Shown piece after piece: positions 1 through 61,794 of a stretch of DNA of 64,000 nucleotides (positions within the stretch are counted from its first letter, which is position 1; every line of letters starts with the position of its first letter). Where the stretch lies: contig SVTT01000005.1 of the NCBI GenBank assembly GCA_015063625.1, positions 44,979-108,978 on the forward strand. The letters are read 5' to 3'. The position numbers and the translations under genes were made by a program. This stretch comes from Oscillospiraceae bacterium (lineage in GTDB: Bacteria; Bacillota; Clostridia; Oscillospirales; CAG-272). The notes below the pieces were generated by a model. The model did not search any database, had not been told where the DNA came from, and saw nothing but the letters and a program-made list of their open reading frames with translations.

Positions 1-845
1 CCGGCGTCACCGTGAATGATCGAAGCACCGGGGAAGAGCGCGCACAGCTCGTTGCAGACCTCTGCCTTTTTCTCAATGACCTTGACCTTGATGCCGGTGT
101 GGCGCAGGATCTCGCACAGGTAGTGCGTGGTGTCACCGCCGCCCGCAACCATAACATCCTTGACCGAGTGAGTCTTGTAGTTGATCTTTCCGAAGAACTC
201 ACCCGCGCTGCGAGGAGATGCGATCAGCGAAATGACATCCTTGCCCTCAAACACGAGATTGCCCTTGGCGATGTAGGCGTTTTCGCCGCGCTCTACGGTG
301 CAGATCAGCACGTTGCAGTGCAGCCTGGAGACCACGTCCTTGACGGCAAGCCCCACGAGAGGGCTTTGCTCGGGCAGACGGAATTTTAACAGCTCGACCT
401 GCCCTCCTGCAAAGGTGTCGATCTTCATAGCGGAGGGGAAGCGGAGCACGCGTGCGATCTCCTCGGCGGCGGCATGCTCGGGATTGATGACCATACCAAG
501 CCCCAGCTCGTCCTTGAAGTAGGCGGCATCGGTGCTGTATTCGGGGTGCTTGACACGCGCAATGGTCTGGCAATCGTGGCTCTTTTTGGCGATCAGACAG
601 CAAAGCAGATTCAGCTCATCCGAGCCGGTAACGGCGATCAGCAGATCGGCGGATGCAATGCCCGCCTCCTGTTGGATGGCATGGGTCGCACCGTTTCCCA
701 CCACCCCCATGATATCTAAGCGCGCCGAAACCTCCTTCACCGTTACGGGGGAGGAGTCAATGACTGTGATATTGTGTCCTTGCTCGTTCAATTGCTCGGC
801 AAGATTTTGCCCAACCTTTCCGCAGCCGACGATGATGATGTTCAT
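1..845 (-). CDS. trkA: Trk-type K+ uptake NAD-binding subunit TrkA (C-terminal part runs off the left edge)
   Basis: Own minus-strand translation from the ATG (plus-strand CAT 843-845): MNIIIVGCGKVGQNLAEQLNEQGHNITVIDSS... has a Rossmann GxGxxG. A second NAD-binding repeat follows (...VMVAGGGDTTHYL...). The frame is open to the window edge, so it is absent from the ORF track. The + strand ORFs listed here are antisense shadows. Confidence 0.85.
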   Translation of the reverse strand, partial: MNIIIVGCGKVGQNLAEQLNEQGHNITVIDSSPVTVKEVSARLDIMGVVGNGATHAIQQEAGIASADLLIAVTGSDELNLLCCLIAKKSHDCQTIARVKHPEYSTDAAYFKDELGLGMVINPEHAAAEEIARVLRFPSAMKIDTFAGGQVELLKFRLPEQSPLVGLAVKDVVSRLHCNVLICTVERGENAYIAKGNLVFEGKDVISLIASPRSAGEFFGKINYKTHSVKDVMVAGGGDTTHYLCEILRHTGIKVKVIEKKAEVCNELCALFPGASIIHGDA

Positions 846-950
846 GGTATCGTCTGCCTTGGGCCTTGTGATTTTCGCCATGTTTGCGCCTGTCCTTTCA
901 CCGATTCAGAGTCTTTCCTAAAAAGCAGGGACTATATTATACATAAAAAA

Positions 951-1823
951 TTATATCTTGTCAATATCCGGATCACTTTTTTCGGAGAGCATACCGTCGG
1001 TCTCGACATCGCGCTCCCCCCCTGTAAAGACGGGAATGAATTGGGAGGCGATCCTTCCCTTGCCTCTGCGCTTGACGTAAAAATAGCCGATCAGGCTGAA
1101 GATCGTCGCCCCGATGAAGTTGACGAAAAGGTCGCCCATGGTATCGAAAAGTCCCACGTCCAACACCCCGCTGAGTGTGATGATCTCACCTCCCTCGGTG
1201 GTGATGGCAGAGCCTGTGATCTCCGTGATGTGCGTCACCCGTTCGCCGAGATCGTTGGGGATGGAGACCGTGTTAACGGTGTTTAAAAAAGCATCCTTTT
1301 GCATGTCGGTGGCAAGCACGTAATCGGCAGCAAACTCAAAAAACTCCCAAAGCACGCCGATGGTCATGGAAAAGCAAAAGGCAACCAAGGCAAGGAAAAG
1401 GGGGGAAAGTGAGAGGGACACGCGCTTGCTTTTGTTGAAGATGTCAACAAGGCAAAAGCCAAAGGCGGCAAACATAAAGCCGTTAAAGGTGTGGAGCATG
1501 GTATCCCAGAAGGGGAAGTGCACGTAAAAATTGCCGATCTCGCCAAGGATCTCTGCCGCAAATACGAACAGATAGGCAAGGATCTCCAGGGTAGTGGGCA
1601 GATCCACGTGGAGATTGCGCTCGACGATCGGGGGGATCAGCAGGAGCAGCGAGGCGAGCACACCGGTAAACACGTTTTCAAAGTGACCGCTGAAAATATT
1701 TCTGATGATGATGGCAAGGATCACGGTGTGCAGGATGATATAAACGGTATACGCCTTTTTGTCCTGCCTGATCTGTGCGTAAAGCGTGGTGACACGGCGC
1801 TTTTTCTTTGGTTTTCGGGTCAT
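951..1823 (-). CDS. polytopic membrane protein, function unknown
   Basis: Start is an internal ATG (codon 211 of track ORF 951..2453) preceded by GAGGAGG. MTRKPKKKRRV is followed by several hydrophobic helices (ILHTVILAIIIRNIF, LASLLLLIPPIV, FMFAAFGFCLV, LFLALVAFCFSMTIGVLW, FVNFIGATIFSLIGYFYV). The upstream 210 codons of the track ORF overlap the cotF-like genes on the other strand and were discarded. Confidence 0.6.
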   Translation of the reverse strand: MTRKPKKKRRVTTLYAQIRQDKKAYTVYIILHTVILAIIIRNIFSGHFENVFTGVLASLLLLIPPIVERNLHVDLPTTLEILAYLFVFAAEILGEIGNFYVHFPFWDTMLHTFNGFMFAAFGFCLVDIFNKSKRVSLSLSPLFLALVAFCFSMTIGVLWEFFEFAADYVLATDMQKDAFLNTVNTVSIPNDLGERVTHITEITGSAITTEGGEIITLSGVLDVGLFDTMGDLFVNFIGATIFSLIGYFYVKRRGKGRIASQFIPVFTGGERDVETDGMLSEKSDPDIDKI

Positions 1824-1940
1824 CGATGACTGGACCTCCTCAAAAAACGTTGTGGTGTTTTCTGTATAATATGGCACATTTTGTGTCATGATAACAGCAG
1901 TGCGGAAAGAAAAAGCTCCGCCATAGAAAGGAAAACGGTC

Positions 1941-2126
1941 ATGACAAGGATTACGGAAAAGGAATTGTCGGCGCTCGGCGATCTGATGTCGCTGGAGTGC
2001 ACCCTGAAGGCAAAGTGCGAGTCGCTTGCCGAGGGCACGGGGGATCAGGCGCTTGCCGCATGCTATCGCGATACGGCGGCACGGCACGCACATCATCTTG
2101 AAGAGCTTTTTGCAAATCTGAAATAA
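1941..2126 (+). CDS. small helical protein paired with the CotF-family gene (putatively spore-coat associated)
   Basis: ATG at 1941 inside track ORF 1881..2126 gives 61 aa (MTRITEKELSALGDLMSLECTLKAKCESLAEG...HLEELFANLK). It is co-oriented with the CotF-like ORF and ends 12 nt upstream of it. Function is inferred from context only. Confidence 0.45.
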   Translation: MTRITEKELSALGDLMSLECTLKAKCESLAEGTGDQALAACYRDTAARHAHHLEELFANLK

Positions 2127-2138
2127 GGAGAAACGAGT

Positions 2139-2417
2139 ATGGCAGACATGACAGGATATACCTTCGGCGAGAAGGAGCAGATGGCGGACCTTCTCGCCTC
2201 GGAAAAGTTTTTGGCAGGCAACTATTGCAGCTTTCTTTCGGAGTGCGCCACACCCGAGGTGGTGAGCGCGCTTAGCGAGCTGCTGATGGACACGCACCGT
2301 ATGCAGCAGCGTATTTTTGTGGAAATGAACAGCAGAGGATGGTATCCCGTGACCAAGGCACAGGAGCAAAAGATCGCCGAAGCCAAGCAGAAGTTTGGTA
2401 CAAAGATCCCGAGCTGA
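2139..2417 (+). CDS. CotF-family spore coat protein
   Basis: 92 aa. EKEQMADLLASEKFLAGNYCSFLSECATPEVVSALSELLMDTHRMQQRIFVEMNSRGWYP fits the Coat F domain pattern, ending in the RGWY motif. RBS AAGGAGAAA lies upstream. Confidence 0.75.
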   Translation: MADMTGYTFGEKEQMADLLASEKFLAGNYCSFLSECATPEVVSALSELLMDTHRMQQRIFVEMNSRGWYPVTKAQEQKIAEAKQKFGTKIPS

Positions 2418-2501
2418 CCTCAAATGCTGCTGCCATCGGGGGCAAAAATGCATAGGGCTGCTGCAAAAAAGCAGCAGCCCTGTCTATGGCACATTGGTGA
2501 C

Positions 2502-2921
2502 TTACTCTTCTTCCTTCTCGGGCTCTGCATCAGCTGTGGATGCCGTTTCGTCAACGACCTGCTCGTCGCAGACCTCTTCGGCAGCTGCATCCTCGTCGCA
2601 GGCGGTATCGCTTGTCGGCTCGTCGTTTTGCACAGCGTCCTCCTCGGCGGTGACCTTTTTCAGCTCCTCCATCTGGTCAAACAGGCCGTCGATGGTGGCA
2701 ATGATCTGCAGCTTTTCCTCCTCAAGGCTCTCCCCGGTGTGCAGATCGCGGTATACGATCTCGCCAAGCAGCTCGTACTGCTCGTCAATGCGGATCTCCA
2801 GTGCCTTGATCTTCACGCTGCGGGAGGCGGAATCGGCAAGCTCGTTTGCCTTGTCGGACACTTTCTTGACTGCGCGTTTTGCTTTGGCGCACAAACGGTT
2901 GAATGTAGACATAAGGGACAT
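2502..2921 (-). CDS. hypothetical protein: coiled-coil N-terminal part with a strongly acidic C-terminal tail
   Basis: Track ORF of 139 aa, MSLMSTFNRLCAKAKRAVKKVSDKANELADSASR...IDEQYELLGEIVYRDL, then a D/E-rich tail. RBS-like GAAAGGAG lies upstream on the minus strand. The overlapping + strand ORFs are low-complexity shadows. Confidence 0.55.
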   Translation of the reverse strand: MSLMSTFNRLCAKAKRAVKKVSDKANELADSASRSVKIKALEIRIDEQYELLGEIVYRDLHTGESLEEEKLQIIATIDGLFDQMEELKKVTAEEDAVQNDEPTSDTACDEDAAAEEVCDEQVVDETASTADAEPEKEEE

Positions 2922-3016
2922 GCTCCTTTCACATGGTTCTTCCTTTTACAGTATAGCGCATTTTGCCGCAAATGTAAAGCGTTTTTCAAATTTTCAAGCA
3001 AAAAAGGAGAGAGAAT

Positions 3017-3466
3017 ATGAATATGAACGATAAAAGCTATGCCCGTTACGTCGAGGCGCGCGCGCCGCGTTCCCCGATCCTCAAAAACTGCATGTGGGCA
3101 TTTTTGGTGGGCGGCGGGATCTGTCTGTTTGCCGAGGGCGTGGGACAGATCTTACGCAGAGTGTTCGGGATGAACGAGGAAAACAGCGGTACGGCGGTGG
3201 CAGTGCTGCTGGTGTTCATCGCGGTGCTTCTCACGGCGCTCGGACTGTTTGAGCGCATTGCCAAGTTTGCGGGGGGCGGCACGCTGGTGCCCATCACGGG
3301 CTTTGCCAACGCGGTGGCATCTCCCGCCATTGATAGCCGTTCCGAGGGCTTTGTGCTTGGCGTGGGTGCCAAGATCTTTACGGTTGCCGGCCCCGTTCTG
3401 CTTTACGGTACGGCGGCAGGCACGCTTTACGGATTGATCTATTGGCTCAGCGGGATCTTTCTGTGA
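3017..3466 (+). CDS. spoVAC: stage V sporulation protein AC
   Basis: 149 aa membrane protein. ...AFLVGGGICLFAEGVGQ...GGGTLVPITGFANAVASPAIDSRSEGFVLGVGAKIFTVAGPVLLYG is the conserved SpoVAC core. RBS AAAAGGAGAGAG lies upstream. Confidence 0.85.
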   Translation: MNMNDKSYARYVEARAPRSPILKNCMWAFLVGGGICLFAEGVGQILRRVFGMNEENSGTAVAVLLVFIAVLLTALGLFERIAKFAGGGTLVPITGFANAVASPAIDSRSEGFVLGVGAKIFTVAGPVLLYGTAAGTLYGLIYWLSGIFL

Positions 3467-3576: not shown

Positions 3577-3651
3577 TGGGATGTCGCCAAGCGGTAAGGC
3601 ACCAGACTTTGACTCTGGCATTCGTAGGTTCAAATCCTGCCATCCCAGCCA
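3577..3651 (+). tRNA. tRNA-Gln (anticodon TTG), CCA encoded
   Basis: The cloverleaf was read by hand. Acceptor TGGGATG pairs with CATCCCA. The anticodon stem is CCAGA/TCTGG and the loop is CT-TTG-AC. The T-arm has GGTTCAAATCC. Overall it resembles bacterial tRNA-Gln. Confidence 0.93.
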
Positions 3652-3687: not shown

Positions 3688-3855
3688 ACTTTTTCACTTT
3701 TCACTCTTCACTTTTCACTAAAACCTCTTGTCGTTTTTTGGCAAGTAATAAGTAATAAGAACCTGCTTCGCAGAACCTTGATACTCGCATTGCTCGTAAT
3801 ATGTGAATAGTGAAGAAGTAAGGCAGCTTTTCGCCAAGGCGAAAAGCATTTTTTT
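3688..3855. repeat. possible degenerate member of the word/hairpin 'zipper' element family
   Basis: Four head-to-tail (T/C)TTTCAC words occupy 3691-3718. The complementary GTGAA word occurs at 3803 and 3810. Between them are GTAATAA x2 and small hairpins (CTGC-TTC-GCAG). The segment ends in a strong terminator, GCTTTTCGCC-AA-GGCGAAAAGC plus a T-run (3826-3855). Confidence 0.35.
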
Positions 3856-3915
3856 ACGAACTTGCAATCTTACCGATTTCATGCTATACTAATCACAGAA
3901 AGGCGGTGAGCATCT

Positions 3916-4344
3916 GTGAAAAAAACAAAACAAAAACATTATGCTTTTAATACCCAACTGTTTTTTGTCATCGCCCTTTTTGCCATTTTTTTGGTTTTAT
4001 CTATATGTGCTGCAATCGAACGAGAGATTGGACTTTCAATAGGCTTTGCGATTGCCACTCTGCTTCCCATCTTTGTTTTTTTAATATCACCATTGTATAC
4101 GGCTTTTTCGGATGAAGAAATCGAAATCGTTTATATAATGGGACAAAGAGAAATTATTAAGTGGAGAAACATAAGGAGCATACGTTTAAACGGAGCTTGG
4201 ATTAGCAGAGGTGGAGGATTCCCTCACTATGAGGTTGCTTACCCAACCAATGCGAAACGTGCATTTTTTGTTCGCGGAGAAATCCCCAAAACAAGAAAAA
4301 CAAAAAAATATATCAAAATGTATTATAAGAAAGATATTATATAA
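3916..4344 (+). CDS. hypothetical small membrane protein encoded in an AT-rich islet
   Basis: GTG start at 3916 with GGCGGTGA upstream, giving 142 aa. Two N-terminal hydrophobic helices (LFFVIALFAIFLVLSICAAI, IGFAIATLLPIFVFLISPL) are followed by a K/R-rich tail. A-rich codon usage is visibly unlike the neighbouring genes. A TTGCAA-17-TATACT promoter lies at 3861-3889. Confidence 0.5.
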   Translation: MKKTKQKHYAFNTQLFFVIALFAIFLVLSICAAIEREIGLSIGFAIATLLPIFVFLISPLYTAFSDEEIEIVYIMGQREIIKWRNIRSIRLNGAWISRGGGFPHYEVAYPTNAKRAFFVRGEIPKTRKTKKYIKMYYKKDII

Positions 4345-4430: not shown

Positions 4431-4640
4431 ACAGAAAAAAGCACTTGCGTGAGCAAGTGCTTTTTTCAACGAAATCCGCCTTCTGCGGAAGAAATCCACC
4501 TGCGGTGGATGAAATCGCTTCGCGATGAAATCCGACTTCGTCGGGATAGGAGAGGCGGATTTTATTTCATCTGAGGCCGTAGGCTGAAGATTTCATCCGA
4601 GCATGCGAGGATTTCATCGTGCAGAGCACGATTCCATTTT
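4431..4640 (-). repeat. zipper element, copy E (word GATGAAATC(C) / (G)GATTTCATC)
   Basis: A terminator-like hairpin comes first (ACAGAAAAAAGCACTTGC-GTGA-GCAAGTGCTTTTTT, 4431-4466). GAAATC(C) then occurs at 4471, 4491, 4511 and 4527. Its spacers are hairpins: CCGCCTTCTGCGG, CCACCTGCGGTGG, TCGCTTCGCGA, CCGACTTCGTCGG. The complementary word GATTTCATC-type occurs at 4557-4571, 4589 and 4609, with a degenerate copy at 4630. Confidence 0.6.
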
Positions 4641-4927
4641 TCTTGCCCGGCCGAATTCGAATCGGTTCCGACTCCCCCCGGAGGGAGTTTTGGTATACCG
4701 GAGAACGGATCGATAAAGAGAATGTTGAAAGCGCGGCGAGCAGCAAAAGGGCAAAGCGATAAATTTTCAACGCACCGTGCGCTCAAAGGTCACAAAAAAT
4801 TGTTGCAAAAGGCAGGGCTTTGTGTTAAAATGAGGGTGGTCGCACAGGGCCCTGCCGATTTTGAAGGGCATACTGTCGCGGCTTCGATACGATCGAAAAC
4901 AAAATTACATATCAAAGGAGAACGATC

Positions 4928-5705: not shown

Positions 5706-7052
5706 ATGCAATCGCAAACGCAGCATTCGCCCCAAGCGCAGCAAAAGCCCCGCGCGAACGGCTGGGCGCTTCTTCCCATCCTGGTCTTTTTGATCCTGTA
5801 TCTCGGTGTGGGCATTCTTTTTGAGTACGTGCTGAAGGAAAGCATGGGCTTTTACATCATGTCGGTCGTGGTGGCATTCATGGTTGCCCTTGTCGTGGCG
5901 TTCTGCCAGAATCGCGGTACATCCTTCGATGAAAAGATCCGTCTTTGCGCCGAGGGGGCAGGGGACAGCAATATCATCACCATGATCTTCATCTTCCTGC
6001 TCGCAGGTGCCTTTGGCGGTCTTGCCTCGGCGGCGGGCTGTGCCGACAGCACCGCGCAGCTGCTGCTTTCGGTCATCCCCTCGCGCTTTGCCGTGCTCGG
6101 CATTTTTGTCATCGCCTGCCTGATCTCGATGGCTATGGGGACCTCCTGCGGCACCATCACTGTCATGAGCGCGCTCACGCTTTCGGTTGCCAATACCACT
6201 GGCATCTCGGTGGCGCTCTGCTTCGGCGCTCTGGTCGGCGGCTCGATGTTCGGTGATAATCTCTCCTTCATTTCGGATACCACCATTGCCGCTACCAAAA
6301 CGCAGGGGTGCGAGATGAAGGATAAGTTCAGAGAGAACTTTAAGATCGCGCTTCCCGCGGCACTTGCCACGATCGTGCTTCTTCTGATCTTCGCTCTGGT
6401 GGGCGAGAGCGCCGAGATGGCGCAGTTCACCATCACCTGGCGCACCGTGGTGCAGGCATTGCCCTATTTTTCCATTCTGATCGCCGCCATGCTCGGCGTT
6501 CAGGTCTTCCTGGTGCTGCTTGGCGGCATTGTGTTGACCGCGCTGGTAGGCTTTGCGACCTCCACGCTCGCGCCCGTTGCCATGCTCTCCTCGATGGGAA
6601 GCGGCGTGTCGGGCATGTACGAGACCGTGCTGGTCGCGCTTTTGGTGGCGTGCCTCGGGTCCCTGGTCAAGGCAAACGGCGGCTTTGAGGCGATCCTTGC
6701 CTTTGTCAGAAAGCATTTCCGCGGTGAAAAGGGCGGGCAGCTCGGCATCGCACTGCTTTCCTCGGCAATGGATGTTGCCACCGCCAATAACACGGTTGCC
6801 ATCGTGATGGCGGCGCCCATCGCCACCGAGGTGAGAGAGGAGTACGATATCTCGCCCCGTAAGACGGCATCCCTGCTGGATATCTTTACCTGTATCTTCC
6901 AGGGCATCATCCCCTACGGTGCACAGATGCTTTATGCCTCTGCTGCCGCAGGCATTGCCGCCGTGAAGATCATTCCCTATATGTTCTATCCGTATTTCCT
7001 CGCCGTCAGTGCCGTTCTCTTCATTCTGCTTGGCAAAAAGAAGACGGCGTGA
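5706..7052 (+). CDS. nhaC: Na+/H+ antiporter NhaC-family membrane transporter
   Basis: 448 aa, about 11-12 TM. ...IITMIFIFLLAGAFGGL...GGSMFGDNLSFISDTTIAATKTQG... is typical of the NhaC C-terminal domain family. The gene is 16 nt downstream of the SDR gene. Confidence 0.8.
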   Translation: MQSQTQHSPQAQQKPRANGWALLPILVFLILYLGVGILFEYVLKESMGFYIMSVVVAFMVALVVAFCQNRGTSFDEKIRLCAEGAGDSNIITMIFIFLLAGAFGGLASAAGCADSTAQLLLSVIPSRFAVLGIFVIACLISMAMGTSCGTITVMSALTLSVANTTGISVALCFGALVGGSMFGDNLSFISDTTIAATKTQGCEMKDKFRENFKIALPAALATIVLLLIFALVGESAEMAQFTITWRTVVQALPYFSILIAAMLGVQVFLVLLGGIVLTALVGFATSTLAPVAMLSSMGSGVSGMYETVLVALLVACLGSLVKANGGFEAILAFVRKHFRGEKGGQLGIALLSSAMDVATANNTVAIVMAAPIATEVREEYDISPRKTASLLDIFTCIFQGIIPYGAQMLYASAAAGIAAVKIIPYMFYPYFLAVSAVLFILLGKKKTA

Positions 7053-7093
7053 CGGTGCGATCGCCTTGGAGAGCAGGCTCTCTTTGACGATGC

Positions 7094-7156: not shown

Positions 7157-7999
7157 TCAACCGATCCCGTGTGATTTGCATCGGGTGTCCCGCCACACCG
7201 ACGGCGGTATGCCGCATTGCCGCTTAAAGACCTTTGAAAAATGCTCCGAGCAACTGAAGCCGCATTGCTCGGCGATCACCCCGGTCGGCAATGACGTTTC
7301 GCAAAGCAGACGCCTGGCGGCACAAAGACGGCGCTCGGTCAGATAGTGAAAGATCGTATCCCCATAGCGCTTGCGGAAATGCTCGGTCAGCGTGACCGTG
7401 CTGCAATGGAAGTGGAGCGACAGCGAGGAAAGGCTGACACGGTGTGCAAAATTGCGGTCAAGCCATTCCTTGGTAAGTGCCGCAAGATGCTCTCCCTCCT
7501 CGGGCAGCAAAAATCGCTCGGCAATATGCGTGGCAAGCAGACCAAGCAGGCGTCGGGCGGCAAGCAGCTCGTCCTCTTCCTTACGGCAGAGTGCGCTGAC
7601 CGCCTCTCCGATCTCATCCCTGCGCTCCTCGCCGAGCAGGGAAAGGGCAGTGCGCAGGGCGGCTCCCTCATGCTCCTTGCCCTTGCGAAGCACCTGACCC
7701 GCAAAGAGATAGCCCCTGACGGTGCCCGATTCCACAATGGGGACCAGTGCCTCGGGGATGCCGAAGGGACAATCGAAATAAAGGGGCTCACGGCTTGTTT
7801 TTACGCGCTCAAAGGCAGAGAGGTCTGAGCGAAAGCAGACGGCATAGCCCTCGCCCTTACGCTGGATCGCCGTGCAGAAGGGGACGGGGGGTGCGCCGCA
7901 GTCGGCAATGCATTGCAGCTGTGTGTTGTAAAGCGAAACGCGGATGCCCGACAGTAAATAGAAATCCTTCAGCAGTCCCTTGATCAGTGTCAGCTCCAT
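7157..7999 (-). CDS. AraC-family transcriptional regulator with N-terminal PocR-like sensor domain
   Basis: ATG at 7999 (codon 21 of the track ORF) is preceded by GGAGGA. The N-terminal part, LLKDFYLLSGIRVSLYN...CPFGIPEALVPI...GYLFAGQV, is PocR-like. The C-terminal part is an AraC double HTH (...SLSSLSLHFHCSTVTLTEHFRKRYG...IAEQCGFSCSEHFSKVFKRQCGIPPSVWR). Confidence 0.8.
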   Translation of the reverse strand: MELTLIKGLLKDFYLLSGIRVSLYNTQLQCIADCGAPPVPFCTAIQRKGEGYAVCFRSDLSAFERVKTSREPLYFDCPFGIPEALVPIVESGTVRGYLFAGQVLRKGKEHEGAALRTALSLLGEERRDEIGEAVSALCRKEEDELLAARRLLGLLATHIAERFLLPEEGEHLAALTKEWLDRNFAHRVSLSSLSLHFHCSTVTLTEHFRKRYGDTIFHYLTERRLCAARRLLCETSLPTGVIAEQCGFSCSEHFSKVFKRQCGIPPSVWRDTRCKSHGIG

Positions 8000-8180
8000 G
8001 CCATCCTCCGGTTTGGTGATTTCATAAAACATTATAAGAAAAGGCGGCGTAAATGTCAATATTTCTGTTATTTTTTATCGATTCGACAAATTGTTTTATG
8101 AAAGAGGCATAGAGAAAGCAAGCGTGCCTTGCTATAATAAAGACAACGTCGGATCGTTTTGATCCATCAAGGAGGAGCTT

Positions 8181-27416: not shown

Positions 27417-27817
27417 AAAAAAGCACTTGTGGCATAGCGTGATGTCCTTAACGGACAAATCACGCTAACTAAGTTTGCCCTTGCGGGCAAGTGAAGTTTA
27501 CTTCGTAAGTGAAGTTATCCTGCGGATAGTGAAGTTTTGCCTTCGGCAAAGTGGGCAAACTTAACTTCACTGCGAGCTTTGGTGAGCAACTTCACTGTGT
27601 ATCACACAACTTCACTTTTGCGGCAGCAAAAACTTCACTGACAGAAAAAGAGCAAACATACAAGATTTTTGTCTTGCGTGTTTGCTCTTTCTGTTTGTGA
27701 TATGGGTTTGGGCTTAGCCCATAGAGTATTTGACTAGTCAAATGCGATGCTCGCACTTAGCGGTATTTTTCAATTTCTCCGCTAAGGACATCGCCCAATA
27801 GCCGCAAGTGCTTTTTT
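27417..27817. repeat. ~39-bp imperfect inverted repeat (split terminator stem) bracketing a ~325-bp hairpin-rich segment
   Basis: The left arm is AAAAAAGCACTTGTGGCATAGCGTGATGTCCTTAACGG (27417-27454). The right arm is CCGCTAAGGACATCGCCCAATAGCCGCAAGTGCTTTTTT (27779-27817). The outer 17 bp differ at one base and match the stem of the intact terminator at 4435-4466. Confidence 0.7.
27437..27694 (+). repeat. zipper element, copy A (word GTGAAGTT / AACTTCAC)
   Basis: GTGAAGTT occurs at 27491, 27509 and 27529. AACTTCAC occurs at 27563, 27588, 27608 and 27631. Every spacer is self-complementary. The central hairpin is TTTGCC-TTCG-GGCAAA. Capping hairpins lie at 27437-27465 and 27641-27694. Confidence 0.75.
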
Positions 27818-32663: not shown

Positions 32664-32955
32664 TTGGGCGACCTACGGTAAAGCAGGTCGCCCAACTAAG
32701 TTTGCCCATTCGGGCAAGTGAAGTTTACTGCGTAAGTGAAGTTATCCTGCGGATAGTGAAGTTTTGCCTTCGGCAAAGTGGGCAAACTTAACTTCACTTG
32801 TGCGAAGCACAAACATCACTGCAAAGCAACTTCACTTTCACGTTAGTGAAAACTTCACCTATTACCTCCCGAAAAACGCAAATGTAACACACCATACTTG
32901 CAGAGCAAGAAGTGTGAAAAGGAGTACAGGCAAAATGCCCGTACTCCTTTTTGTT
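32664..32955 (+). repeat. zipper element, copy B
   Basis: GTGAAGTT occurs at 32718, 32736 and 32756. AACTTCAC occurs at 32790, 32828 and 32851, and AACATCAC at 32812. The left ~100 nt are almost identical to copy A. The capping hairpins are TTGGGCGACCT..AGGTCGCCCAA (32664-32695) and AAAAGGAGTAC..GTACTCCTTTT (32917-32951). Confidence 0.75.
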
Positions 32956-33142
32956 GTATTGGCGGTTGCCAAAACCTGCTTTATCGCAGGTCGCCGTTGC
33001 GTGGGGCTTTTGGTGTCCTGTGTTTCCGAATCGCTTTTGAGCGCTCTGCCCTTCGGGAATATTTGATCGCAATGCACCGTGCGCGAAAAAAGACCGCCCT
33101 GCCGATATTCGGCAGGGCGGTCTGCTGTAAAATGCGCTCGGA

Positions 33143-42691: not shown

Positions 42692-42764
42692 TTCTTTCAT
42701 CGTCCTCTCTTGTCCCTGGCAAAGTGCAAGCATCGCATTTGACCCAACAAATGCAAATGGGCTA

Positions 42765-43217
42765 GGCAAGAGGGAGTGATCTGAACCCGCCCAAAAGCCC
42801 TGATTCCGATAGGGGGCGGCGCCTTCGACGACCCGTTTTTCGGCACCCTCGCGGCACGTTCGGATACGATCAAACCGGTAGGGGTCGGCGCCTTCGACGA
42901 CCCGTCTTTCGGCGCCCTCGGCGACTCATTCTTGGTTGCCGTTCGTTTGTAACGGGCTGCCGTGGGCGTTAGCCCCTACCATGTATGATATCACCCGAGC
43001 TTCGAGGGAACAGATTTTTGCGGCAGCATGGGCGGACATCTGCCACCAAAATCATCTTAAAATCAAGGCTTTGAGGGTCATCCGAGTTTTGAGAGAGCAA
43101 ATGTTTGCAGACGCAAGGGAAATTCTTGCAGTCATATGCGGATATGACAAGGGAATTCCCCGATGCGGATGCGGATATCTGCCTCTCAAAACCGAGTTCA
43201 GATCACTCCCTCTTGCC
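42765..43217. mobile_element. MITE copy 1 (453 bp) with 17-bp terminal inverted repeats, flanked by TA
   Basis: The TIRs are GGCAAGAGGGAGTGATC (42765-42781) and GATCACTCCCTCTTGCC (43201-43217), a perfect pair. TA lies at 42763-42764 and 43218-43219. There is no ORF of its own. Confidence 0.7.
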
Positions 43218-43219
43218 TA

Positions 43220-43493
43220 GGCAAGAGGGAGTGATCCAAACCCGCCCAAAAGCCCTGATTTTCAGCGCTTTCGGCGGCAAGTGCGCTTGTAAAGTCCGCA
43301 CTTGACTTCGCGCCCTTGCCACCAAAATCATCTTAAAATCAAGGCTTTGAGGGTCATTCGAGTTTTGAGAGAGCAAATATTTGCAGACGCAAGGGAAATT
43401 CTTGCAGTCATATACGGATATGACAAGGGAATTCCCCGATGCGGATGCGGATATCTGCCTCTCAAAACCGAGTTCAGATCGCTCCCTCTTGTC
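43220..43493. mobile_element. MITE copy 2 (274 bp), same family, abutting copy 1
   Basis: The TIRs are GGCAAGAGGGAGTGATC (43220-43236) and GATCGCTCCCTCTTGTC (43477-43493). TA flanks lie at 43218-43219 and 43494-43495. The 176-bp core 43318-43493 matches 43042-43217 with 5 substitutions. Confidence 0.7.
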
Positions 43494-43539
43494 TAAATTC
43501 CCTAAAGCTCTGCTTCACTTCGGGGATCCCTACGCAAGC

Positions 43540-43796
43540 ACAGAGAGCAGACACGCAAGACGCTTCGTCTTGCGTGTCTGCTCTTCTGTTAGTGATGTTT
43601 TTGCTATCGCAAAAGTGATGTTATTCGCTTCGCTCATCATGATGTTGCTCGCCAAGGCTCGCAGTGATGTGATGTTTGCCCACTGTGCCGAAGGCACAAC
43701 ATCATTCACGCAGTGAACATCACAAGGCGAAGCCGACATCACTTGCCCATAAGGGCAAACATCGTTTCGCGTGATACTCCGTTAAGAGTATCACGC
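43540..43796 (-). repeat. zipper element, copy D (word GTGATGTT / AACATCAC)
   Basis: Hairpin B is ACAGAGAGCAGACACGCAAGAC-GCTT-CGTCTTGCGTGTCTGCTCTTCTGT (43540-43589). GTGATGTT-type words lie at 43592, 43615, 43639 and 43664. AACATCA(C/T) lies at 43698, 43716 and 43735. Hairpin A is GCGTGATACTC..GAGTATCACGC (43769-43796). Confidence 0.75.
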
Positions 43797-43895
43797 TGTG
43801 CCGTCGGGTCTTTTTATGCTTTTCCCGATCGCTTTTTCTTGACAGAGCGCACAATTTGTGATATCATAATATGAGTTATAAGAAAGGCTGATGCT

Positions 43896-61427: not shown

Positions 61428-61473
61428 AAACGACCCCGTTCGGGCAAAGGATCAGCCCGAACGGGGTCTTTTC
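61426..61473 (+). terminator. intrinsic terminator after potD
   Basis: GACCCCGTTCGGGC-AAAGGATCA-GCCCGAACGGGGTC followed by TTTTC. Confidence 0.7.
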
Positions 61474-61501
61474 ATAAAGCAGGTTTTACAACCGCAAAAA
61501 C

Positions 61502-61794
61502 AAAAGGAGTACGAACATTTGTTTGTACTCTTTTTCACACGCCTTGCCTGCAAGGTATAGTGTGTTACATTATACTTTTGTTTTTTGGGTGGTAAAAGGT
61601 GAAGTTTTCGCTATCGCGAAAGTGAAGTTGCTATGCAGTGAAGTTTGTGCTGCGCACAAGTGAAGTTAAGTTTGCCCACTTTGCCGAAGGCAAAACTTCA
61701 CTATCCGCAGGATAACTTCACTTACGCAGTAAACTTCACTTGCCCCTTGGGGCAAACTTAGTTGGGGCACCTGCAATATCGCAGGTGTCCCAAC
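61502..61794 (-). repeat. zipper element, copy C (inverted orientation)
   Basis: On the plus strand, GTGAAGTT occurs at 61599, 61622, 61638 and 61660, and AACTTCAC at 61694, 61714 and 61732. Its reverse complement aligns with copy B at roughly 85-90% by eye. The capping hairpins lie at 61502-61535 and 61761-61794. Confidence 0.75.

Follow-up and report, generated by a model that had tools for sequence, protein, structure and literature searches.

A Gut-1 foldback array in a probable terminator-targeting mini-element of gut and rumen Clostridia

Gut-1 has been carried in Rfam (RF01706) as an orphan 'sRNA' since 2010, without a host or a function. Its description consists of one sentence, which introduces a small RNA (sRNA) candidate known only from human-gut reads (Weinberg et al. 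2010, PMC2864571). We analyzed a 64,000-nt stretch of contig SVTT01000005.1 from an Oscillospiraceae bacterium, hereafter the window, in which a structured repeat (copy 1, 27434-27800) lies between the convergent genes ftsK and rnpB. The left arm of this repeat is the Rfam Gut-1 motif, and the Rfam model corresponds to one half of a self-complementary module that appears to ride in small mobile shells within transcription terminators. We consider it probable that copy 1 belongs to a group of integrative mini-elements in gut and rumen Clostridia that are non-autonomous, target terminators and carry a Gut-1 foldback array as cargo. This reading would recast the question of Gut-1's identity as an RNA into a testable question about mobile DNA, and the analysis supplies uncultured families that carry the motif.

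Among described mobile systems, large serine recombinases with a DUF4368 domain are reported to group in a multi-targeting clade of TndX-like transposases whose core dinucleotides, TT among them, are conserved (Durrant et al. 2022, PMC10083194). Two types of ends occur among the elements described below, and the likeness to Tn4451/TnpX, Tn5397/TndX and the DUF4368 clade holds for end type II and extends to end type I, that of copy 1, by analogy: once joined, type II ends would be imperfectly palindromic about a core dinucleotide, a DUF4368 gene lies beside a type II end, and there are many target sites, which resemble the element's own joint. In contrast with TndX/TnpX-type elements, the Gut-1 copies are 330-370 bp long, non-coding and without a recombinase, and their targets are the hairpins of intrinsic terminators. 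With Correia, ERIC, RUP, BOX and REP/BIME repeats they share a small size, the absence of coding capacity, multicopy intergenic occurrence, terminal inverted repeats and a stable transcript fold, but no sequence relation to these families was found, and the Gut-1 interior is a two-armed array of mini-hairpins and words in which the word is variable. The insertion in a terminator loop recalls IS1397, which inserts in the loops of REP palindromes. As an analogy of architecture that implies no relation, the Drosophila FB foldback transposons have long inverted arms of short tandem repeats; they are eukaryotic, far larger and without hairpin spacers. The left arm, as Rfam Gut-1, is the part already known. 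No description of the Gut-1 right arm, terminal repeats, terminator insertion, multicopy occurrence, mobility or carrier taxa was found in the literature searched, nor did the literature on terminator-targeting miniature inverted-repeat transposable elements (MITEs) or non-autonomous serine-recombinase elements yield an account of a Gut-1 foldback element; the two-armed architecture and its word classes, the conservation of hairpins on both strands, the carrier taxa and the placement in terminator-splitting shells whose ends recur in gene cassettes and in a multi-targeting serine recombinase element appear to be undescribed in the searchable literature.

The conserved unit of copy 1, delimited with a repeat finder and by alignment with L063 (similarity over 27434-27799; L-numbers label loci or contigs retrieved in our scans of genome collections and metagenomes), spans 27434-27800 and is bounded by 27-nt terminal inverted repeats at 27434-27460 and 27773-27799 that are 81% complementary. 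The left repeat (ATAGCGTGATGTCCTTAACGGACAAATCACGCTAA, plus strand) is also hairpin A (27434-27468), whose arms at 27435-27443 and 27459-27467 are 100% complementary, and this left end is conserved in L034, L042, L044, L063, L110 and copy 4 of the window, always with the core next to it. The left arm of the array (27466-27540, plus strand) consists of L0 (CTAAGTT), hairpin H1 (TTGCCC/GGGCAA) and three copies of the word GTGAAGTT separated by hairpins H2 and H3. It is followed by the apex (27536-27563, plus strand), made up of hairpin H4 (TTTGCC-TTCG-GCAAA) and GGGCAAACTTA, and by the right arm (27563-27640, plus strand), in which four copies of AACTTCAC are separated by H5-H7 with GNA/GNNA loops, H5 containing a tandem G·A. 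The word stands on the plus strand at 27491, 27509 and 27529 and its reverse complement at 27563, 27588, 27608 and 27631, and a longer form is present as AGTGAAGTT at 27490, 27508 and 27528 and as AACTTCACT at the same four right-arm positions. A long-range pairing (P0), an alternative to H1, joins TAAGTTTGCCC (27470-27480) to GGGCAAACTTA (27553-27563), the two being 100% complementary over 11 nt. Beyond the array lie hairpin B (27641-27694), a right-hand module (27695-27772, plus strand; a GGGCTTAGCCC hairpin and a TTTGACTAGTCAAA palindrome) that is about 80% conserved with L063, L027 and L002, and the right terminal inverted repeat (ATTTCTCCGCTAAGGACATCGCCCAATA, 27773-27800, plus strand), which aligns with the right ends of L063 and L002. 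Hairpin B, a long A-tract/stem/T-rich structure with 19-nt arms at 27647-27665 and 27672-27690 (89% complementary), looks like an internal bidirectional terminator, and a homologue is present in copy 4 at 43544-43584. An earlier note, made from the sequence of this DNA, had described hairpin A, the word triplet and reverse-complement quartet, the central hairpin, the long-range pairing and hairpin B, all of which were confirmed; it had also let the element end with hairpin B at 27694, but the unit runs on to 27800. Matches of the plant miRNA models MIR156 (33 bits) and MIR535 to hairpin B (27638-27697) appeared in E-value mode, were sub-threshold and were set aside as long-hairpin artefacts.

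Flush against the two ends of copy 1 lie AAAAAAGCACTTGTGGC (27417-27433), 20 nt past the ftsK stop codon, and GCCGCAAGTGCTTTTTT (27801-27817), which are complementary at 16 of 17 nt. Together they make up a split bidirectional terminator that separates ftsK from rnpB. In predicted folds of both RNA strands, the stem formed by these halves closes the whole insert. We interpret AAAAAAGCACTTGTGGC as host sequence and as part of the insertion target, and GCCGCAAGTGCTTTTTT is likewise host sequence; the uninterrupted site between the two genes is predicted to have read AAAAAAGCACTTGTGGC-A(TA)-GCCGCAAGTGCTTTTTT. Split-terminator brackets of unrelated sequence are also found flush against the ends of L063, L084, L095, L099 and L100. 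The flank-to-flank stem score was at least 13 in 9 of 27 elements compared to 8.9% of shuffled controls, with five elements above the control maximum. BLAST comparison of the window with the retrieved loci detected similarity (75-95% identity) at the elements only, without any match in flanking genes, and among these loci no neighbouring gene was common to the window copies and any other copy. Because none of these bracketed copies has a neighbouring gene in common with the window copies, the brackets represent independent terminators rather than the covarying closing helix of one orthologous RNA. Mobility and the choice of terminators as targets are thus well supported, and a non-autonomous mobile element is the best fit among the three hypotheses that the earlier note had offered. 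A 12-nt terminator arm, AAAAAGCACTTG, with four exact occurrences (six with one mismatch) against 0.5 expected, was seen at two unrelated loci, in an intact hairpin before copy 5 (4431-4466) and in the split bracket of copy 1.

Within the window, GTGAAGTT occurs 20 times against 1.48 expected, none of 100 shuffles reached 20, and all 20 occurrences fall within three loci. A generic detector, which looks for runs of a 6-mer that precede runs of the reverse-complement 6-mer, located arrays at 4470-4618 (GAAATC; copy 5), 27489-27639 (copy 1), 32717-32858 (copy 2), 43592-43741 (TGATGT; copy 4) and 61598-61740 (copy 3). Outside the window, a scan of the genome collection for three GTGAARTT words returned at least 120 loci, mostly in metagenome-assembled genomes (MAGs) of gut and rumen Clostridia. 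Carriers among the loci listed are Oscillospiraceae, Acutalibacteraceae, Christensenellaceae, Ca. Scatosoma and 'Eubacteriales', and Ruminococcaceae are also among the carriers of the Gut-1 module. The 175-nt core was found at no fewer than 74 loci in different MAGs of uncultured gut and rumen Clostridia, with varying outer modules. The earlier view of a multi-copy family of structured intergenic repeats with further copies beyond the window therefore holds, with five copies inside and at least 74 loci elsewhere. The phage and plasmid collections gave no match, and of the loci listed in the IMG/VR scan, L170 alone displays the two-arm signature. This contig, from the same sample as L123, contains copies at 3845-4037 and 7848-8042, about 4 kb apart and in one orientation, and may be either a prophage or a piece of chromosome that was misclassified. 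Another contig, L005, binned as Akkermansia sp., contains three above-threshold Gut-1 matches within 1 kb and two GATATAACC zippers (2312-3306, 5743-5932 and 6885-7053), representing either a cluster outside the Clostridia or a binning error.

The identity of the left arm was established by cmscan against Rfam 15, in which RF01706 (77 positions, one arm; gathering score 50 bits) matched 27466-27540 with 55.7 bits (E=2.6e-8). The gathering score was also exceeded at 32693-32767 (53.3 bits) and at 61690-61764 on the minus strand (50.4 bits), and matches below it were obtained at 4467-4536 (45.8 bits, plus strand) and 43694-43767 (34.8 bits, minus strand). The repeat had previously been placed in no known sRNA class; a clean RF01706 match, above the gathering score at three loci, overturns this and removes part of the novelty. 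In copy 1, the left arm has the Gut-1 hallmark of three covarying hairpins separated by a GUGAAAU-like word, whereas the right arm matched RF01706 only weakly and on the opposite strand (24.2 bits in copy 1, 25.8 bits in copy 5), indicating that the Rfam model describes a single arm. The flanks of the 2010 seed alignment (supplement of PMC2864571) have an equal anatomy, including an unmodelled right arm: in seed BAAZ01000095, three copies of GUGAUAUU are followed by GGCGAAUAUA and then by four copies of AAUAUCAC with hairpins. Two arms are therefore the general form of Gut-1, and relative to the one-armed Rfam model, the window unit adds a right arm, terminal repeats and insertion in a terminator. 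Most of the other word classes are missed by the model.

To assess the structure of the array, a model of seven mini-hairpins and nested word-word helices was scored on an alignment of 29 full-length cores. The proportion of paired cells was 94.6%, compared to 35-43% with the partner column slid, and 29 pairs were changed on both sides versus 14.4 in shuffles, none of 500 of which reached 29. All seven mini-hairpins (H1-H7) covary, in agreement with what the earlier note had proposed for the spacer stems. The word-word helices are near-invariant within the class, and copy 4 alone, with GTGATGTT/AACATCAC as its words, compensates, doing so in all four helices. The same layout recurs with other words (GCTAAATT, TCGATAT, GATATAACC, GTTATGA, GTAATC, ATGAAT, GAAATC and GUGAUAUU), giving at least nine classes overall and at least three variants within the window. 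Words thus differ between copies and left-right complementarity is kept, as had been claimed, although the support from comparison across classes is partly circular because the detector demanded a reverse-complement partner. Complementarity of L0 and the 5' arm of H1 to the central segment is also kept, with different sequences, in six word classes, and the P0-type relation was seen with other sequences in copy 5, L036, L087, L101 and seed BAAZ01000095.

Three words are present in the left arm of all 39 elements of the GTGAWRTT class, and four in the right arm of 21 of the 39, which matches a rod of four rungs (L0-R4, L1-R3, L2-R2 and L3-R1). The minimum-free-energy fold of either strand is a nested rod (z -12.2 and -11.7), and the strands are nearly equal in folding energy. 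Neighbouring words follow each other at intervals of 16-20 nt (left arm, mode 18) and 16-29 nt (right arm, mode 23), with no helical phasing. A census of stem pairs in 115 spacers from 39 distinct elements counted 572 Watson-Crick, 6 G·U and 0 A·C pairs; with G·U at only about 1%, the complementary strand also keeps the hairpins. On the Gut-1 strand, right-arm loops are of the GNA/GNNA kind (GATA, GTA, GAA) and left-arm loops are T-N-C closed by C-G, which become C-GNA-G on the opposite strand, so that each arm is the same array type on its own strand. Mini-hairpins of the form d(cGNAg) are unusually stable. A weak preference for the Gut-1 strand is visible in the 6 G·U versus 0 A·C pairs and in the recurrent tandem G·A of right-arm hairpins, and together with the fixed orientation of the array within the shell, it makes it plausible that transcripts coming from the left read through into the array. 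The low G·U content, dyad symmetry and mixed orientation point away from a classical one-strand sRNA and towards structure kept on both strands. Selection on structure, as argued in the earlier note, is accordingly supported by covariation but needs qualifying, given the roughly 1% G·U, the dyad symmetry and the hairpins kept on both strands. For comparative RNA discovery this is a caution that covariation alone is no proof of RNA function.

Copies 1 and 4 have end type I (terminal repeat AATAGCGTGAT...GTCCTTAACGGA), and copies 2 and 3 have end type II (GGCGACCTGCGATAAAGCAGGT..., with a conserved right module that includes its own terminator). A scan of metagenomes for the type II repeat detected gene-carrying elements of 1.36-2.18 kb in nine contigs (L231, L235, L240, L297, L304, L318, L325, L326 and L342) at eight distinct insertion sites. 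In these cassettes, the type II left hairpin and right module are kept and a gene stands in place of the Gut-1 array, encoding an HTH_3 protein in most and a TetR-like, sigma-like or unknown protein in the others. The cassettes in L231, L235, L297, L318, L325 and L342, contigs from the human gut and other metagenomes, are 1.45-1.6 kb long and contain an XRE-type HTH_3 gene under a TGGACA-17-TATAAT promoter of its own. All eight sites are different A-tract/stem/T-tract terminators, exemplified by the insertions in L297 (AAAAAAGCCACCCTTT|element|CCACCCTTTCGGGTGGCTTTTTT) and L318 (AAAAAATCCCCGCTT|element|...GCTTCGGCGGGGATTTTTT), and the left flank of type II elements ends in TT at about 17 of 20 junctions. 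The type II cassettes look like a system that uses terminators as landing sites. If so, they would constitute a human-gut cassette family with intrinsic terminators as landing sites, probably by way of multi-targeting large serine recombinases, a class relevant to genome engineering.

In addition, the type II hairpin GGCGCACCTGCGATAAAGCAGGT is found some 200 nt away from the 3' end of a gene encoding a 571-aa recombinase with Resolvase, Recombinase, Zn_ribbon_recom and DUF4368 domains in L335, L317, L258 and L241, so that the same ends are common to array elements, gene cassettes and a recombinase-carrying element. In L335, the recombinase gene (450-2165, minus strand) is situated at the end of an element of more than 12 kb with HTH, TetR-like and ABC-transporter genes, the contig not reaching the other end. 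No Y1 or DDE transposase was found beside any end among the loci carrying end sequence. The PATE-like (IS200/IS605) identity suggested earlier was therefore dropped, terminal inverted repeats being present and type II ends adjoining a large serine recombinase rather than a Y1 enzyme; nor was the anticipated longer copy with a Y1 transposase seen, the gene-carrying type II relatives holding serine recombinase or regulator genes instead. Joining of the type II ends would give a 2x23-nt imperfect palindrome around TT in which 19 of 23 nt are symmetric (predicted as ...TTTATGGAAGGCACCCC-TT-GGCGTACCTGCG...); for type I, the palindrome of the predicted joint (...GGACATCGCCCAAT(A)|(A)TAGCGTGATGTCC...), with an AT/TA centre, was judged by eye only. 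Taken together, the palindromic joined ends, the terminator insertions and the DUF4368 neighbour make mobilization in trans by a serine recombinase the best candidate for type II. We infer that such an enzyme moves the element, and by analogy we propose the same mechanism for the type I unit at 27434-27800.

On this basis, the element may be viewed as three layers. The outer shell consists of imperfect, hairpin-forming terminal inverted repeats of about 25 nt and the internal terminator module. Its points of insertion are the loops of A-tract/T-tract intrinsic terminators, and it most likely moves by site-specific recombination, with a serine recombinase supplied in trans and terminator palindromes presumably acting as attB. 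Within it, a cargo slot holds a promoter and gene (XRE, TetR-like or sigma-like) in the larger relatives and the Gut-1 array in the mini-elements. The array, L0-H1-(word+hairpin)x3, apex, (reverse-complement word+hairpin)x4, is predicted to form a rod of four 8-bp rungs (L3-R1, L2-R2, L1-R3 and L0-R4), every junction being flanked by two mini-hairpins, one to either side. Given the reverse-complement symmetry and near-pure Watson-Crick stems, either strand would fold alike, whether as transcript or as single-stranded DNA; as the family would land in terminators both ways, both strands would be exposed in one form or the other and both kept foldable. The foldback presumably makes insertion into a terminator in either orientation self-contained and harmless, or performs some other service in cis. 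That the array is a working device, either a DNA rod of stacked four-way junctions or a cruciform joining attL and attR of a 350-bp element for excision by a serine recombinase, or an RNA that folds identically from either strand into a new kind of orientation-independent terminator insulator or higher-order assembly, seems to us rather unlikely; if true, no structured module before Gut-1 would have been known to be needed in cis by a mini-element that targets terminators.

Several observations weigh against the reading of copy 1 as a terminator-targeting mobile element or against parts of it. The recombinase link comes from one element family in four contigs and from end type II only, and for end type I, BLAST revealed only array-carrying copies and no relative carrying a gene or recombinase. 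An exact-flank pattern for the empty ftsK-rnpB terminator had 0 matches in metagenome contigs, leaving the empty-site comparison called for in the earlier note without a positive result, and the contig-level scans turned up neither an empty site nor a circular junction. No close relative of the window species is in the databases, the nearest having 71% amino-acid identity. Contigs that encode an identical 566-aa neighbouring protein all contain the same 576-nt intergenic region, and the nearest homologues, about 61-70% identical over the aligned region, have a different synteny and short intergenic regions, so that these provide no orthologous site. The absence of the element beside neighbouring-gene orthologues in other genera, in contrast, speaks for mobility. 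The idea that the foldback preserves the split terminator stem gained no support: the stem forms with a probability of about 0.9-1.0 at equilibrium with the native and with a shuffled interior alike, an equality that renders the equilibrium test uninformative. One-armed arrays (L031, L057, L103 and L109) and chimeric ones are real, so that arm-to-arm pairing is not obligatory. Finally, conservation is higher in the core than at the ends, a pattern seldom expected of a purely selfish element and a hint that the core itself may serve some function. An unbiased census counted 130 arms, 71 of them with a partner arm; arms found alone or mismatched indicate separable modules, of which the zipper is the commonest combination. 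The chimera in L060 (2356-2750), in which four GTGAAGTTT units precede about 12 CATATCACG-plus-hairpin units, with a GTGAAGT left arm and ATATCAC units, shows that arms can expand and be mismatched.

The core's conservation above its surroundings would also be expected if Gut-1 were a genuine trans- or cis-acting sRNA gene, the type ('Gene; sRNA') under which Rfam lists it, with a two-armed full structure, its copies being paralogues that lie near terminators by chance. The Rfam matches above the gathering score, the strong hairpin covariation, the constant orientation in which the shell holds the array, followed by a terminator, and the 6 G·U versus 0 A·C pairs and recurrent tandem G·A on the Gut-1 strand all favor such a gene. 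We nevertheless consider it unlikely, because G·U makes up only about 1% in a dyad-symmetric design, words vary among copies of one genome, position is not conserved between species, and the copies are enclosed by terminal repeats that at other sites delimit gene cassettes. Moreover, no sigma-70-like promoter site is present upstream of the copy 1 array, which hairpin A abuts, and the end at which Gut-1-strand transcription would enter faces a gene 3' end in three of the five window copies and a 5' end in two. The near-pure Watson-Crick stems that count against an sRNA are what would be expected if one arm were copied from the other, and the array might thus be functionless filler whose palindromic spacers were perfected by mutation (template-switch correction of quasi-palindromes) rather than selection, as random orientation relative to genes and the expansion and recombination of arrays as modules (L060, L105) would also allow. 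This explanation appears highly improbable in light of the three left-arm words in every one of the 39 elements, the non-random loop classes (GNA/GNNA and their complements), a core that is 75-95% conserved across species with outer modules exchanged, and the L0/a-a'/R0 long-range complementarity maintained in six word classes.

The words might instead be binding sites for a recombinase or accessory protein that assembles a synaptic complex, like the subterminal repeats of IS607, Tn7, Mu and hAT; inverted arrays of three and four words lie beside the two ends, all eight words change jointly between copies 1 and 4, and an IS607-family serine transposase that binds four 9-bp subterminal repeats provides a precedent (PMC6188088). 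The subterminal repeats of IS1535, however, have a phasing of about 10 bp (PMC6188088), and the helically phased direct repeats of IS607-type ends were not found, the word spacing being unphased. With the word variants in one 64-kb window and the classes overall as numerous as given above, covarying hairpin spacers that would be superfluous for binding to a duplex, array-less gene-carrying shells with the same ends at eight different sites, and one-armed arrays, we regard this explanation as quite improbable, and the protein-binding array that the earlier note had listed is not favored because words vary within a genome and their spacing is not helically phased. Copy 1 also has the hallmarks of a classical MITE, namely terminal inverted repeats, a small size, no open reading frame and many copies, and might have been moved by a DDE transposase making 8-9-bp target duplications, the recombinase neighbour being coincidental. 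The perfect 8-11-nt junction repeats at some copies, at L084 (CAGCCGCAC), L297 (CCACCCTTT) and copy 3 (ACCCCGTT), do resemble such duplications and are a further point against mobilization by a serine recombinase. Junction repeats as a whole range from 2 to 11 nt (GCAC, TCAC, CCACCCTTT, CAGCCGCAC). However, the right-end 9-mer GCACCCCTT is identical in four cassettes despite different left flanks, which fits an att arm better than a target duplication, a conserved TT lies at the centre of the att-like palindrome given by the joined ends, and no transposase lies beside any end examined. A DDE origin is therefore quite improbable for a family whose enzyme, unlike that of bacterial MITEs, is probably a serine recombinase. 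Other assignments were rejected as well: a CRISPR array (the words are 8 nt, the spacers palindromic and the only match CRISPR-DR18, at 18.7 bits versus 50), a riboswitch (no conserved unpaired core and a variable genomic context), a Rex/CRP-type operator (wrong half-site spacing) and an IS200/IS605 PATE.

The other window copies differ in their ends, words and surroundings. Copy 2 (32666-32998, plus strand) comprises a left hairpin (GGGCGACCTACGGTAAAGCAGGTCGCCC), a Gut-1 zipper, a right module with its own terminator and the right repeat AAAACCTGCTTTATCGCAGGTCGCC, and copy 3 (61460-61791, minus strand) is of the same end type and inverted. Copy 4 (43540-43797, minus strand) has the GTGATGTT/AACATCAC word, and copy 5 (4431-4645, plus strand) has the word GAAATC/GATTTC and a AAAAAAGCACTTGC-GTGA-GCAAGTGCTTTTTT hairpin in front. 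These account for the five clear loci of the earlier note, the copy at 43.6 kb proving to be inverted too; all are beside terminators, as it had stated, but they are not in every case co-oriented 3' UTRs, since copies 2 and 4 lie between tandem genes to which their left-arm (Gut-1) strand is antisense. The right module of copy 4, a fragment of the type I shell at 42719-42767, has been displaced by two nested MITE-like repeats unrelated to Gut-1. This adjacent pair (42762-43220 and 43217-43495; also 42806-42920), which sits between copy 4 and the displaced module, has 28-nt terminal inverted repeats (CTAGGCAAGAGGGAGTGATCTGAACCCG), a 179-nt internal direct repeat of 97% identity and a 46-nt repeat pair. 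A sixth, doubtful locus at 3688-3855 was not supported as a family member, consisting of hairpin-less tandem TTTTCAC heptamers with no Gut-1 match at E<=1. At 3688-3720, four tandem TTTTCAC/CTTCAC heptamers without hairpins follow a tRNA gene (3577-3648) and its terminator. Hairpin-less AUUUUCA runs similar to these heptamers are present about 250 nt downstream of one of the 2010 Gut-1 seeds, and the heptamers may represent a decayed or different type of arm.

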